A stretch of DNA of 64,000 nucleotides. Origin: Bryobacterales bacterium (lineage in GTDB: Bacteria > Acidobacteriota > Terriglobia > Bryobacterales > UBA6623). Both the position numbers and the translations under genes were made by a program. The notes beneath the pieces were generated by a model that searched no databases, was not told where the DNA came from, and worked only from the letters and a program-made list of their open reading frames with translations. This document shows positions 28,999-35,706 of this stretch, piece by piece. The number at the start of each line of letters is the position of its first letter. Position 1 is the stretch's first letter. The stretch lies in assembly GCA_963422375.2 (NCBI GenBank), contig CAXXKD010000001.1, forward strand, positions 430,769 through 494,768. The letters run 5' to 3'.

Positions 28999-30118
28999 AT
29001 GATCCTGGACGAACTGCAGCGAGAGTTCGAGACCGTGCGCGCGCGCGCTCACATGGTCCGGGGGTATCTTTGACGCCTCCGCCGGCAGGCGGCACTTGGC
29101 GGAGATCGAGAAACGCATAGCGGAGCCTGCCTTCTGGAGCGACGGGGCCGGAAGCCAAGCGCTGTTACGAGAGCGCAAGCGGCTGGCACGCCTGATCGAC
29201 ACCGACGAGGAAATCGCCGTCGCCGTCGCCGACCTGGGAGCCTACTTGGAACTGGCAGCGGAAGGCGAGCCGGTCGAGGACGAGTGCGCCGCAGCTCTGG
29301 AAGAACTGGACCTGCGCTTGGAGCAGGTCGAGACCCAGGCCCTGCTCGGGGGCGAGCACGACCGGGCCAATGCAATCATGACCCTGAACGCCGGTGCTGG
29401 CGGCACGGAGGCGCAGGACTGGGCCGAGATGCTGCAGCGCATGTACCTGCGCTGGGCGGAGCGCAAGGGATTCAAGGGTGAGATCTCTGACATGCAGCCC
29501 GGGGACGAGGCCGGCATCAAGTCGTCCTCGATCATCATCCGCGGCGAGAACGCCTACGGCCTGATGCGCTCGGAGACCGGCGTGCATCGACTGGTGAGGA
29601 TCTCGCCGTTCGACTCCAACGCACGGCGCCACACCTCGTTCGCCTCGGTGTTCGTGTATCCGGAGATCGAGGACGAGATCGAAGTCGACATCCGGCCGGA
29701 CGATCTGCGCATCGACACCTACCGAGCGAGCGGCGCCGGCGGCCAGCACGTCAACATGACTGATTCCGCAGTCCGCATCACGCACCTGCCGACGAACATC
29801 GTGGTGCAGTGCCAGAACGAGCGTTCGCAGCACAAGAACAAGGCGACGGCGATGAGGATGCTGCGGGCCCGACTGTACGATTTCGAATTACGCAAGAAGC
29901 GGTCCGAAGCGGACAAGATCGAGGCATCCAAGCTGGATATCGATTTCGGCAGCCAGATCCGAAACTATGTCCTAGCGCCGTACCGGCTGGTCAAGGACCT
30001 GCGCAGCCTCCTCGAGGTTGGCGACGTGGACCGCGTGCTCGACGGTGACTTGGACCGGTTCATGCACGCCTTCTTGGTTCACGAGAAGACGGGGCGTCAG
30101 GGAGCCGAGCTGGCATGA
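28999..30118 (+). CDS. prfB: Peptide chain release factor 2 with programmed +1 frameshift
   Basis: ATG 28999, 24 codons to CTT TGA C at 29068-29074 preceded by GGGGG; +1 frame contains SPF and GGQ. Confidence 0.97.
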
Positions 30119-30371
30119 CCTTGGGATGCTGGCACGGTGGCCCGGTTCAGCGCTACCCGTCGGATGCTGGCCGACAGTCTTTTCGAGACTCCGTGCGACC
30201 TCCGAAGGGAGGGATGAGGCGAAGATCTTTCCAAGTGCCGGCCTGCATGGAATGCGCGTCGGCTGGCCCGGAACGAACCCGTCGGACCGCCCGTTGCGGG
30301 ACGACTCGAGCGTCCCAAGCGATTCGGTCATCCGAGCCCCCCATCCGATAGAGTGCAGTAAAGGTGCTAGC

Positions 30372-30773
30372 GTGCGCAGACACAAGTTGCGGCACCGTCC
30401 TCGAATCGGCAAGGCGCGGAGTGTCGAGCCACCGCCTGCTGGTGTCGACCTGCGACATCTGGCGGGATTGTGCCGTTACGTCGGGAGTCCGTACCACAAG
30501 GATATCCCTTGGTTTGGTGGAGCGCCTACTGCCCCGAGGCCTCACGCCAGCATCTGCCCGCGAGAGTTGGCTCGAAAGCAGGCTCTCGTCGAAGGCTGGC
30601 TCCGGGATGCCATCCGGGCCGGCCAAGTCGGAGGGTGGGATCACGGCTTTCCTCGATACGTTTGGTACCGGGACGAAGGCACGGTGTACGAGGCTCGGCA
30701 GGGATCTCCAAGCTCAGGCGCGTATCACGGATATCCTCTTGAAGAGCGCGAGTACCCTCGAGGATTGAAATGA
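30372..30773 (+). CDS. Small hypothetical protein, putative ribonuclease toxin
   Basis: YVGSPYHK, ICP, FPRYVWY, YEAR, YHGYP; GTG after AAGG; ATGA overlap with next gene; function inferred. Confidence 0.65.
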   Translation: MRRHKLRHRPRIGKARSVEPPPAGVDLRHLAGLCRYVGSPYHKDIPWFGGAPTAPRPHASICPRELARKQALVEGWLRDAIRAGQVGGWDHGFPRYVWYRDEGTVYEARQGSPSSGAYHGYPLEEREYPRGLK

Positions 30774-32062
30774 GCGTCCAGTTTGAGTTCGAGTGGGTTG
30801 ATGCGGGACCGTCGCCGGATTCTGCTTCACGTGACTCAATGGCTCGGCTCTCAATCCGAGCAGGCGACTCGAATGTCACGCTGGTCCGCGACCGGCGAAC
30901 CAACTCGTACATTGATCACGTAATTGTTCCCCTCATCTATGTGGCCGAATGGATTGCGACTAACTGGTGGCATATTTGGTACGAGACTGCCGACTTGTCC
31001 AACCAAGGACTTGACTTCGAGTCGCGACACAACCTTGCATATGTCGGAAACGGGTTTTGTCTGCCAAACATCACGATGATTTCGGTGACAGAAGAACGAG
31101 TCAATCTTCGTTGGAAAAAGGAGAAGCCGCAATACTCCCAAATCGAGTTTGTGGATCAAGGCGACGTAACGATAGATCGTTCGGAATTGGATGCGACACT
31201 TCGAAGGGTCGTGGACGCTGTTCTTGAAAGGTTCCGGACCTCTTCTAACGCTGAATTAGTGGTAAAGTGGCTGCAGGAAAGATGGTCTCTGATCAATTCT
31301 ATTGACGTAGATGAGCGGGAGTTCTGCCGGGCTGTCGCGTTGACAGGGCGTGACCCCTTTGACGTTCCAGATCCGCTTGCCGACGAAATTGTTGAGTTCT
31401 GGAAACGCACGGACCCCTCCTTGCGTCAAGATGCCTTGGCCTGTGTCAGGGACGGTTCACTTTCAGACATGCGTCAGTGGCTGGACGAGTCTCTCGCCAC
31501 TCTCTCAGCGATAGATGGCGGGAAAGATTGGTCCGAGGTCCGTGCACGTGCATCCCTGTCTCCGATGCCGTCAGGCGAGCCGTGGATGCAGGGATACGAC
31601 CGCGCACGTTCGATACGGTCACTCATTGGCAATAGCAGTGACCGGTTTGACTTTCCGGCCTGTGGACCGCTGGCTTTGGGCCACGGTGATACTATGTCGC
31701 CATTCAGACGTATTCAAGGGCTGGTTGCGTCAGATGCTCCGAGCTGCATTACTGTGAATCGACACGAAGCGGGTTGCCGGTTCTTGCGGGCGAGGGCACT
31801 TGGAGACTACATGATCCGGTCAAACGAATGCCCCGGAGTCCTCTGTTCTCTTGACACCGAGCAACAGGGACGGACTCGGGCATTTGCTGCGGAGTTTCTC
31901 GCACCTTCGGAGTCTTTGCGTGTCCGCTTGGCGGGTACTTCAGTCGATGGCAACGAGATTGACAACCTAGCCCTTGAATTTGGTGTTTCCAGTCAATTGA
32001 TCATTCATCAGCTCGAAAACCACGGCCTAGTGTCGTCCCGGAATCCCTATGCTCTCGTTTAG
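30770..32062 (+). CDS. ImmA/IrrE (peptidase M78)-like protein with large N-terminal domain, HExxH absent
   Basis: C-terminal RFLRARALGD...RAFAAEFLAP...LALEFGVS matches IrrE/ImmA architecture; lower GC than the flanks. Confidence 0.78.
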   Translation: MSVQFEFEWVDAGPSPDSASRDSMARLSIRAGDSNVTLVRDRRTNSYIDHVIVPLIYVAEWIATNWWHIWYETADLSNQGLDFESRHNLAYVGNGFCLPNITMISVTEERVNLRWKKEKPQYSQIEFVDQGDVTIDRSELDATLRRVVDAVLERFRTSSNAELVVKWLQERWSLINSIDVDEREFCRAVALTGRDPFDVPDPLADEIVEFWKRTDPSLRQDALACVRDGSLSDMRQWLDESLATLSAIDGGKDWSEVRARASLSPMPSGEPWMQGYDRARSIRSLIGNSSDRFDFPACGPLALGHGDTMSPFRRIQGLVASDAPSCITVNRHEAGCRFLRARALGDYMIRSNECPGVLCSLDTEQQGRTRAFAAEFLAPSESLRVRLAGTSVDGNEIDNLALEFGVSSQLIIHQLENHGLVSSRNPYALV

Positions 32063-32314
32063 TGTCCCACTGCTTGTGTCCTTCACCGCAGTCTAGCCGC
32101 CCATTACTGCGACTTGGTTGAGGCGAAGTGCCTTCGACTGATTACTAGCGGTCCGCTTCGGTGATCGCCCAATTTCGCATCCTGACCAACCCTCGAATGT
32201 GCTAGCCGGCATTGGTCTCGCCGAGCTCCCAGAGTCTCAGAATGCCGGTCTTCAGATGCTGGCGCAGCGGACCGCAGGTGACGACTGCGAGGTTGGGGGC
32301 TGACTCAGCCCTCG

Positions 32315-32992
32315 TCAGGGCAGCGTGGCCGAAGCAGTCCCTTCTGAACCGGGTTCCCGCGCCGAGGCAGGATCCTGCGACTGGCAGGCGTCGACGGGAG
32401 GCGGGGCTGGCTGCCCGGGCTCGTCGCGAGAGTCGGGCAGGAATTCGGTCGCAAGCAGGGCTAGCGGCAGCACGAGGAGGGCCATGGCAACGCCGAAAAC
32501 CCGACGCATGGAGTTCATATCAGTCCGAAGCGACCTTATCGCTTCCAGTAGCAGCTCGTGCCGGGAGTCCGAAGCCTTGTCCCTCTCGTCGATCCGGTTC
32601 GCCAGCGCCGAAACCATGGTTCGCATCTTCGTCTCCAGTGCCTCGATCCCGGTCGATGTCTCCGACCGCAGAGACGTGATCATTCCTTCAAGCCGATCGT
32701 GGCGAGCGGACCACGCCTTCTGGCGTGCGTCAAGGGGCCTGCGGGTCTCGGCGTGGCCCGCTTCAATCGTGTTCTCGATCTCCGTCCGGAACGAATCGAG
32801 GCTCTGCTGGATCCGGGCATGCAATTCGGCTTGGACATGGTGTTGACGCTCGCTGGCAACGGCAGCCACCAGAATGCGCAGGGTATCCATGTCGAGGACT
32901 GGGACGGCTTGGTTCGCGATCCGTCCGTGGTCCCGCTCCGAGACCCGCGCCGCTTGCTTTGCGACCTTGGCGGACTTCGGTGTTTCGGTCAT
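32315..32992 (-). CDS. Hypothetical coiled-coil protein with C-terminal TM
   Basis: GGAG upstream of ATG; heptad-rich middle; hydrophobic VFGVAMALLVLPLALLA. Confidence 0.6.
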   Translation of the reverse strand: MTETPKSAKVAKQAARVSERDHGRIANQAVPVLDMDTLRILVAAVASERQHHVQAELHARIQQSLDSFRTEIENTIEAGHAETRRPLDARQKAWSARHDRLEGMITSLRSETSTGIEALETKMRTMVSALANRIDERDKASDSRHELLLEAIRSLRTDMNSMRRVFGVAMALLVLPLALLATEFLPDSRDEPGQPAPPPVDACQSQDPASAREPGSEGTASATLP

Positions 32993-33663
32993 AGCTATCT
33001 CCAGCCTCCAGCTGGCGACGGAGGGCCGGTCGCTGGGACCCTATTCAGCCCTCCGCCGAGCCCCCAATTCCGGAATCGCGATCCGTCCGGAGCCCTCGTG
33101 CAGCCGGGGGCCGCACGGGCGGCTTGCACCTACCTCGGCCGACGGCAGCCAGGCACCGTCCAACCAGAAGAGCTCCCGCGTCGACCCCGGAGCGGCGACA
33201 CGCAATCCTAGCAGCCGCGGTTGCGCCGGGACTTCGAACTCGTTGGCAAACAAGGAGCTTCAGGGATTGTTGGTGCCATCGGTCTCGCGACGTTCGTGGA
33301 CTACGCTTTGTGACCCGACCGGGGCGACGGAGTCCTGCTTGCGACTGTCGAGGCCCCAAGCCGTGGTGTGCGACCGGCTAGGAGATGGGGCACGAATAGG
33401 ACCGAGGGCTTGGGGCGACCGTCGAGCTTGATGGCACTCCAAGATGACGCAAGTCTATGGCAAGCTACCGTTCCAGCGACAAGGGTTCAACGGCTCCTCC
33501 TCCGGTCTCAGTCGACTTGGGATCGGTCGCCGGTCATGGCCTACGCTGTCCGACGAGCGGGAAACCGCGGACGGCGGGAGGCCGCCGGCGTTCGCGCCTC
33601 CGGCGCGGCGGCTTCGCCTAGCGCAAGCTTGCCATCACGGCACCGTCGGTATCTAATGGACTC

Positions 33664-35706
33664 ATGCATCGAAGGCTCGTCCTGATCTGCTCGGCCGCCC
33701 TTGCGGCCTCCGTCGCGCAGGCCGGTGTCGTCGCGGTGGATGTCAGTGGCAGGGATGCCGTGCTGGGTGGGAGGTCCTTCGGCCTGGCTGGCTCGTACGA
33801 GAGGATCACCGGGACGATGCGGTTCGCCGTCGATCCCGCCGACGCGGCGAACCGCATCGTCACCGATATTGCACTCGCCCCCCGCAATCGCGCCGGAGAA
33901 GTCGAGTTCTCCTCGGCGTTCTATCTCCTCAAGCCGGTCAACATGGCGCGAGCGAACGGTGCGGTCCTGTACGAGGTCTCCAATCGCGGCCGGAAGGGCA
34001 TGCTGAGCTTCTACAATCTCGCCGCCGGCAGCCTCGACCCGCGCTCCGAGCGCGAGTTCGGCGACGGCTACCTGATGGAGGAAGGCTACACGCTCCTGTG
34101 GCTCGGCTGGCAGTTCGACCCGCCCCTGCGTCCGGGGCTCTTGCGGCTCAAGACACCCGTCGCGGCGCGTGGCGGCGAGCCGATCCGGGGCCTCGTCCGC
34201 AGCGACTTCGTGGTCTCGGACCGGGCGGCCGCGCATTCCCTCGCGGACCGCAGCCACGTGCCGTACGCCGTCGCCGACCCCGGGGCGGCGGAAAACGTGC
34301 TGACGGTGCGAGACGAGGCTGTCGGCCGACGCGAGGTCATTCCGCGCGACCGCTGGAAGTTCGCGCGCATGGAGAACGGCAAGCCCGTCCCGGACAGCGG
34401 CTCGGTCTGGCTCGAGGGCGGCTTCGAGCCCAACCGGATCTACGAGGTCGTGTACGTCTCGGAGAACCCGCCCTTGGTCGGACTTGGCCCGGCCGCCGTG
34501 CGGGACGCTGTGTCGCACCTGAAATACGAGGGCTCCGCATCGCTCGGCATCGGCACCGAGGCGCTCGACCGTACGATCGCGTTCGGCATCTCGCAGAGCG
34601 GCCGGTTCCTGCGGACGTTTCTCTACTACGGCTACAACCGGGACGAGCAAGGCCGGATCGCATTCGACGGGATCATGTCGCACGTGGCCGGGGGAGGGCG
34701 GGGCAGCTTCAACCATCGGTTCGCGCAGCCGTCCCGGGACGCGCATCCCTACATGAACTTCCTCCACCCCACGGATATCTTCCCGTTCAGCGACAAGGCC
34801 CAGCGCGACCCGGAGACGGGACGCGAGGACGGCATCCTGACGCACGGGCTCGACCGCAGGTTCTGGCCCAAGATCTTCTACACCAACTCGTCGTACGAGT
34901 ACTGGGGGCGCGCCGCATCGCTGATCCACACCGACATCGAGGGGACCCGGGATATCGAGATCTTCGACAACGTGCGCGTCTTCCTGTTTTCCGGGGCGCA
35001 GCACGGGCCCGGCTCGTTCCCGCCTACCGTATCCATCGGCCAGCAGAAGGCCAACCCGCTCGATTTCCGCTGGTCGATGCGCTCGCTCCTGAGGGCCATG
35101 AACCGCTGGACGGCCGACGGCGCGGAGCCTCTCGAGAGCCGCTACCCCCGGATTGCGGACGCCACCCTGGTGAGGCCCGAGAGGCTGGGCTTCCCCGCGA
35201 TCCCCGGCGTGCGCACGTCGTCCAAGGTGCACGAGGCCTACCGGGCGGACTACGGGCCGCGCTTCGTGAGCGAAGGGATCGTCACCCGGGAGCCACCCGC
35301 CGTCGGCAAGGCGTTTCCGATTCTCGTGCCGTCCGTCGACAGCGACGGCAACGAGACCGCCGGGGTCCGCATGCCCGAATTGCAGGCCCCGCTCGCGACC
35401 TACACGGGCTGGAACCTGTTCAACGCTCGCTCCGGCCCGACGGACGAGATCTCGAGCATGGTCGGGTCCTACATTCCATTCCCGCGGACGGGCGCCGAGC
35501 GCGAGGCCCGCGGGGATCCGCGCCCGTCGATCGAGGAGCGCTACGGAAGCCGGTCCGAGTACCTCGGGCGAGTCGCCGAGGCGGGCTTGGCCCTGATCGG
35601 GGACGGCCTGCTGCTCGAGCGCGACCTGCCCGCCGTGGTTCGCAACGCTGCCCGTCACTGGGACTACCTAATGACGGATTCCCCTTCGGATGCCGCCGGT
35701 CGCTGA
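33664..35706 (+). CDS. Secreted alpha/beta hydrolase domain protein (Abhydrolase_10-like)
   Basis: Signal peptide, YEVSNRG, GWQFD, GISQSGRFLR (GxSxxG), EYWGRAASL, DSDGNE. Confidence 0.88.
   Translation: MHRRLVLICSAALAASVAQAGVVAVDVSGRDAVLGGRSFGLAGSYERITGTMRFAVDPADAANRIVTDIALAPRNRAGEVEFSSAFYLLKPVNMARANGAVLYEVSNRGRKGMLSFYNLAAGSLDPRSEREFGDGYLMEEGYTLLWLGWQFDPPLRPGLLRLKTPVAARGGEPIRGLVRSDFVVSDRAAAHSLADRSHVPYAVADPGAAENVLTVRDEAVGRREVIPRDRWKFARMENGKPVPDSGSVWLEGGFEPNRIYEVVYVSENPPLVGLGPAAVRDAVSHLKYEGSASLGIGTEALDRTIAFGISQSGRFLRTFLYYGYNRDEQGRIAFDGIMSHVAGGGRGSFNHRFAQPSRDAHPYMNFLHPTDIFPFSDKAQRDPETGREDGILTHGLDRRFWPKIFYTNSSYEYWGRAASLIHTDIEGTRDIEIFDNVRVFLFSGAQHGPGSFPPTVSIGQQKANPLDFRWSMRSLLRAMNRWTADGAEPLESRYPRIADATLVRPERLGFPAIPGVRTSSKVHEAYRADYGPRFVSEGIVTREPPAVGKAFPILVPSVDSDGNETAGVRMPELQAPLATYTGWNLFNARSGPTDEISSMVGSYIPFPRTGAEREARGDPRPSIEERYGSRSEYLGRVAEAGLALIGDGLLLERDLPAVVRNAARHWDYLMTDSPSDAAGR

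Follow-up and report, generated by a model that had tools for sequence, protein, structure and literature searches.

A candidate toxin-antitoxin module joining a predicted BECR-like toxin to a pseudo-peptidase in a Bryobacterales genome

The gene pair and its insertion site

We examined a gene pair in a 64,000-nucleotide stretch of the genome of a Bryobacterales bacterium (assembly GCA_963422375.2, contig CAXXKD010000001.1, forward-strand positions 430,769 to 494,768; henceforth the window). A small gene with a GTG start, preceded by AAGGT six bases 5' of it (gene 1), is coupled to a longer one (gene 2) through an ATGA overlap (Table 1), as an initial annotation had described; all motifs which it quoted for the two proteins are present. 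The annotation also placed the pair in an insertion after prfB, and the congeners bear this out. Specifically, the pair begins 253 bp 3' of prfB, and because 5 of 11 congener prfB loci have the hydrolase-like gene (window position 33664) 148-426 bp past prfB, we considered the 3.5 kb between the two genes to be an insert. One congener locus has a prfB-hydrolase gap of 1.2 kb, and the remaining five had no downstream match within the 1.5-kb flank compared. The insert has no integrase, no convincing terminal repeats and no target duplication beyond chance. The low G+C content reported for both genes is strong for gene 2 (54.1%) and only mild for gene 1 (62.4%) against the genome (67.4%), while at third codon positions it is 62% (gene 1) and 57% (gene 2), compared with 85-89% in the genes on either side (prfB and, downstream, the hydrolase gene).

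Table 1 Features of the gene pair and its insert (window coordinates).
Feature	Position	Strand	Description
Gene 1	30372..30773	+	basic protein, 133 amino acids, net charge +10; predicted BECR-fold ribonuclease toxin
Gene 2	30770..32062	+	430 amino acids; predicted three-part antitoxin
Gene 2, N-terminal part	30770..31234	+	
Gene 2, residues 156-262	31235..31555	+	all-helical, strongly acidic middle; conserved W172 and GxDP
Gene 2, residues 266-378	31565..31903	+	M78/IrrE zincin fold; metal ligands and catalytic Glu all replaced
Gene 2, residues 379-420	31904..32029	+	IrrE-type helix-turn-helix (FGVS..HQ..NH)
Insert	30119..33663	.	~3.5 kb between prfB and alpha/beta-hydrolase-like gene; holds the pair and an unrelated coiled-coil open reading frame
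Coiled-coil open reading frame	32315..32992	-	225 amino acids; C-terminal hydrophobic segment; same insert, unrelated to the pair

Predicted folds of the two proteins

The gene 1 protein comprises a pre-helix, the loop Y36-G-S-x-x-H42-K43, C62, a core helix (residues 70-82) and a four-stranded meander in which beta4 carries Y-[H/K]119-G-Y-P. Its modelled topology, i.e., a helix and, after it, an antiparallel sheet of four strands, is that of the BECR core, and the best structural neighbours were nearly all ribonuclease (RNase)-type toxins, although the matches were weak; the BECR-like fold put forward in the initial annotation is thus predicted here with weak structural scores. Foldseek searches of PDB and BFVD returned nothing at E<=0.001, PDB sequence searches with three profiles gave chance matches only, and 46 gene 1 members had no meaningful Pfam match. 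Neither query protein exceeded a curated cut-off in Pfam, NCBIfam or PADLOC, in keeping with the earlier failure to match the pair to a named system. An NsnC profile weakly matched three proteins (E 0.001-0.03), and two 400-genome draws yielded no NsnC sequence for profile comparison, with controls likewise silent. An apparent gene 1 fusion at one locus (L091) proved to be a shadow frame.

Across the 105 distinct intact pairs found over all loci, the most conserved gene 1 residues were H42 (105/105) and C62 (104/105), in a conserved set which also includes K43, E107 and H/K119. Gene 1 could be a toxin neutralised by gene 2 without being a BECR RNase, using H42 and C62 as a metal site or as a Cys-His catalytic pair against another target. 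This would suit the conservation, the weak structural matches and the members lacking a Pfam match, but we consider it quite improbable in view of the predicted helix and four-strand core, its RNase-type neighbours and the H/K on beta4 which, with the His-Lys loop, resembles a BECR-Tox2-like layout. In that group (10.64898/2026.08.28.747851), the BECR core has an N-terminal extension without structure, in which His stands beside Lys, and another His lies where beta4 starts; in gene 1 the motif is mostly HK (KHK in a divergent subfamily) and the beta4 residue is Lys in half of the members. The genomic contexts given for BECR-Tox2-like proteins and Menshen NsnC PB-BECR1 also differ, consisting of Menshen and small Imm2 immunity genes with no IrrE-like partner (10.64898/2026.08.28.747851; PMC12065111).

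The C-terminal part of gene 2 is predicted to form a zincin peptidase followed by a helix-turn-helix (HTH); the initial annotation had seen no HTH, but there is one at the C-terminus, as part of the IrrE fold. As an active-site reference we used a CapP homologue that a control region happened to contain (L166:6527-7351, minus strand; PADLOC capP, E 1e-38). In a profile alignment (profile A7), its RFSLAHELGH aligned to RFLRARALGD with a probability of 94.7%, upholding the suggestion that the latter is a degenerate RFTxAHELGH. The zinc site is replaced by R342 (for His), A343 (Glu), D346 (His) and Q366 (Glu), with R370 invariant. The proposed loss of catalytic residues extends to the whole family, as none of 144 and none of 105 gene 2 members retained HExxH with the downstream Glu. 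The remodelled Arg/Gln/Arg pocket is conserved as strongly as a real active site.

Single-stranded DNA (ssDNA) sensing of the IrrE/CapP type, since ssDNA had been raised as a possible signal, was also considered but not supported, as the structural features that it requires are missing. There is no GAF domain in gene 2, which ends past the HTH, and the position of Arg85/Arg90 (H-7) is G, S or A in 91/105 members. PprI needs the GAF domain to bind ssDNA (10.64898/2026.05.16.725639; PMC10904395). Its ssDNA-stacking Phe88 corresponds by spacing to F338 of gene 2, which 103/105 members retain. Gene 2 further differs from CapP/CapH and IrrE(PprI)/DdrO in lacking the zinc ligands, and the pair has no cognate repressor gene.

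At its N-terminus, gene 2 has a tentatively predicted sPC4L/Whirly fold, which would be common to CdiI immunity proteins. This domain is a better candidate for the toxin-binding part than the dead peptidase. The family mean net charge is -4.1 for the N-terminal domain and -10.5 for the helical middle region. Profile searches found no sequence similarity between gene 2 and sPC4L-fold CdiI proteins, and unlike the latter (5FFP, 4NTQ_B; PMC9424270), the gene 2 domain is fused to a pseudo-peptidase and sits in a module of two genes that is intracellular and lacks a secretion domain.

Coupling, spread and decay of the pair

Obligate co-occurrence was supported: gene 2 lay directly downstream of gene 1 at 43/45 gene 1 loci, and the other two stop at a contig edge. 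Starting from gene 2, among the best 80 of 318 confirmed loci in GTDB contigs (obtained with scan patterns which favour dead forms and intact genes), gene 1 was intact directly upstream in 55, broken in 16 and absent in 9 (one at a contig edge). The identities of the two proteins were correlated over the distinct intact pairs (rho 0.88). We found 381 gene 2 relatives among 8,000 scored candidates and at least 1,843 gene 1 relatives; at 50% identity, gene 2 formed 989 clusters at E<=1e-30 and 3,192 at E<=0.001, where the weak tail takes in true M78 peptidases. Record titles point to Acidobacteria, Alpha-, Gamma- and Betaproteobacteria, Cyanobacteria, Actinomycetota, Planctomycetota, Spirochaetia, Chloroflexota and others, with cultured hosts such as Tistrella, Massilia, Sphingomonas, Rhizobium and Catellatospora. 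Both families are large, unnamed and frequently given the wrong label, 'ImmA/IrrE family metallo-endopeptidase'. A literature search found no account of the gene pair, although the BECR preprint's family tables, which lay outside that search, might list gene 1 under BECR-Tox or a subfamily name.

The distribution is patchy (7/401 genomes in a phylum draw with a first, narrower profile). In the genus itself, 17/31 genomes had gene 1, with as many as four matches apiece that fall into several divergent subfamilies, and another genome had six. The pair was found on plasmids and on 2 IMG/VR contigs, with none in two other scans, no match to gene 1 or to a divergent gene 2 was found in 50,697 phage records, and gene 2 had a lower G+C content than its flanks in 26/28 loci. 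As in toxin-antitoxin (TA) systems of type II, we are dealing with a conserved two-gene operon that is mobile and patchy. Two identical copies (L054 and L055) lie ~19 kb apart on one chromosome with ISL3 transposase fragments flanking both sides, possibly a composite-transposon duplication. Elsewhere, one intact pair has a second, divergent gene 2 homologue head to head with it (L210:2158-3378, plus strand). On a Rhizobium plasmid (L004:4171-6134), an HVO_A0114/ArsR HTH comes after a TumE toxin and is joined to a gene 2 homologue (530 amino acids); gene 1 is absent there, which is a partner swap or a deletion fusion.

To assess genomic context, we ran PADLOC (E<=1e-20) on the closest two called genes to either side of each of 34 non-redundant loci, and on 34 regions chosen arbitrarily from 18 related genomes as the control. 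The defence-island enrichment that the initial annotation had named as a check was not found: PADLOC matched 12/130 flanking genes vs. 10/136 controls (p 0.66), in a small sample of mostly host-associated metagenome-assembled genomes, with control genomes different from the test genomes and genes called by a heuristic that had been checked on the window. Because the neighbours are not enriched in defence genes relative to the control, context lends no support to an anti-phage function; most are housekeeping genes or transposases. Some plasmid copies adjoin DptH, restriction endonucleases, a methylase or a dGTPase, and at L018:9277-12600 a Druantia DruH-like gene on the same strand starts 8 bp past gene 2. 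No repressor gene recurred among the 130 flanking genes scanned. This bears on the idea that the dead peptidase is a decoy or anti-repressor, binding the HTH repressors or phage inhibitors targeted by active ImmA/IrrE/CapP proteins, with gene 1 as a coupled accessory. The strong selection on the remodelled pocket, the persistence of orphan gene 2 copies and the presence of active HExxH M78 proteins as the nearest outgroup in the same genomes (HExxH in 5/8 weak matches examined) fit such a role, but with no recurrent repressor and with a toxin-like fold and decay pattern in gene 1 we find it very improbable.

That decay pattern was seen in a gene-1-first set of 30 loci from the genus (own locus included; states assigned by our own reading). 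Both genes were intact in 20, gene 1 was damaged beside an intact gene 2 in seven (five core breaks, two tail), one locus had gene 1 intact and gene 2 split, with residues 1-238 kept, and two had a truncated gene 1 without gene 2. Gene 1 was lost preferentially (p 2.5e-4, or 3.5e-3 for core breaks only, with relatives not independent), whereas neutral decay would predict the opposite bias since gene 2 is three times longer; this supports a toxin-like, toxin-first decay of gene 1. A second gene-1-first set of 33 non-redundant loci had 20 intact pairs, seven intact gene 1 copies at short contigs, three broken gene 1 copies with intact gene 2, two loci with both broken and one broken at an edge. 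A 231-residue gene 2 of Acidithiobacillus, considered as a natural N-terminal-only antitoxin, was dropped as its gene 1 is also a remnant.

Several observations weigh against gene 1 being a BECR RNase restrained by gene 2, namely its weak structural matches, the peak of conservation at H42 and C62, and lone intact gene 1 copies at L237 and L216. At L237, gene 1 looks intact and gene 2 is cut after ~45 codons by a transposase-like sequence, in a genome which holds four other pairs. The interrupting sequence (L237:741-1684), which is frameshifted and presumably ISAzo13-like, lies in the start of gene 2. Such lone copies would be expected if gene 1 were a latent nuclease, harmless alone, which gene 2 switches on in abortive infection, its Whirly/PC4-like domain binding ssDNA or RNA in place of a GAF domain. 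Whirly, PUR and MRP proteins use the sPC4L fold to bind nucleic acid, the fold is a proposed sensor domain in Menshen (PMC12065111), and the retained F338 points the same way. We nevertheless regard sensor-activation as unlikely: the N-terminal and middle domains are acidic, the shorter gene is the one preferentially lost, and no defence-island enrichment was found at the 34 loci compared.

As to the remainder of the locus, the coiled-coil open reading frame has two paralogues elsewhere in the genome (48-54% identity) and no family match. Near the 5' end of prfB (29051-29074), a CTT TGA C frameshift-type site lies just past 29060 (tatctttgacg) and the listed prfB frame starts downstream; we take it to be the ordinary RF2 programmed frameshift. 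First profiles found a single copy each of gene 1 and gene 2 in this genome. A weak gene 2 profile match (G000:C2:237650-238129; L202) lies in a 400-residue frame with no HExxH in its motif listing, likely a separate M78-family protein.

Proposed mechanism and its meaning

We propose, with a probability of roughly 0.6, that the pair is a conserved, mobile, type II TA-like module of a BECR RNase toxin and a binding antitoxin. The basic gene 1 toxin would be bound by the acidic, CdiI-like sPC4L domain and the helical middle of gene 2, which would neutralise it through direct binding without cleavage. The dead peptidase and HTH would then act as a ligand-binding regulatory module, possibly an autorepressor. 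A stress or phage signal occupying the pocket might set the toxin free, a sensing step that we put forward tentatively and, taken alone, at less than even odds; freed gene 1 would cut tRNA, rRNA or mRNA and arrest growth. More speculative, and in our view doubtful, is a pseudo-protease immune receptor, in which the dead domain, its zinc site rebuilt into the invariant Arg/Gln/Arg pocket, would lure a phage protein or a damage-derived nucleotide as an integrated decoy and, wired via an immunity domain captured from polymorphic toxins, free a new family of BECR RNase.

Among known systems, RosmerTA is likewise a two-gene module with an M78-fold antitoxin (RmrA). RmrA is an active zinc peptidase with an N-terminal HTH. 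PADLOC RmrA matched weakly (E 0.004 and 0.029, spanning 60-85 residues only), RmrT had no PADLOC match in the query proteins, and RosmerTA differs in its unrelated toxin and in the absence of HExxH from gene 2. By analogy, VapBC52 of M. tuberculosis (Rv2514c-Rv2515c) is the nearest working model. There (PMC13273310), an RNase toxin is followed by a three-domain antitoxin of ~415-430 residues with a CapP/IrrE peptidase and HTH, which binds the toxin via a separate N-terminal domain, the layout we propose here. By contrast, that system has a PIN-domain toxin and an HTH-like N-terminal domain where gene 2 has a predicted sPC4L fold and a dead C-terminal peptidase; VapB52 retains HEXXH and cleaves itself on ssDNA (PMC13273310), on which the model relies and which lies beyond the gene 2 family. 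The pair would be a non-proteolytic counterpart of VapBC52 and RosmerTA.

CapP, PprI and VapB52 are IrrE/ImmA-type regulators or antitoxins which signal by protein cleavage (10.64898/2026.05.16.725639; PMC10904395; PMC13273310). The gene 2 family appears to have kept the fold, discarded catalysis, conserved a new pocket and added a CdiI-like domain. If the immune-receptor reading were true, the ~1,000 distinct sequence clusters in many phyla would make up a large class of TA defence sensors that work without proteolysis and have gone unrecognised. If the proposed module is real, it would be a case of a protease sensor turned into a binding switch, and of immunity domains from secreted toxin systems taken up by intracellular modules.
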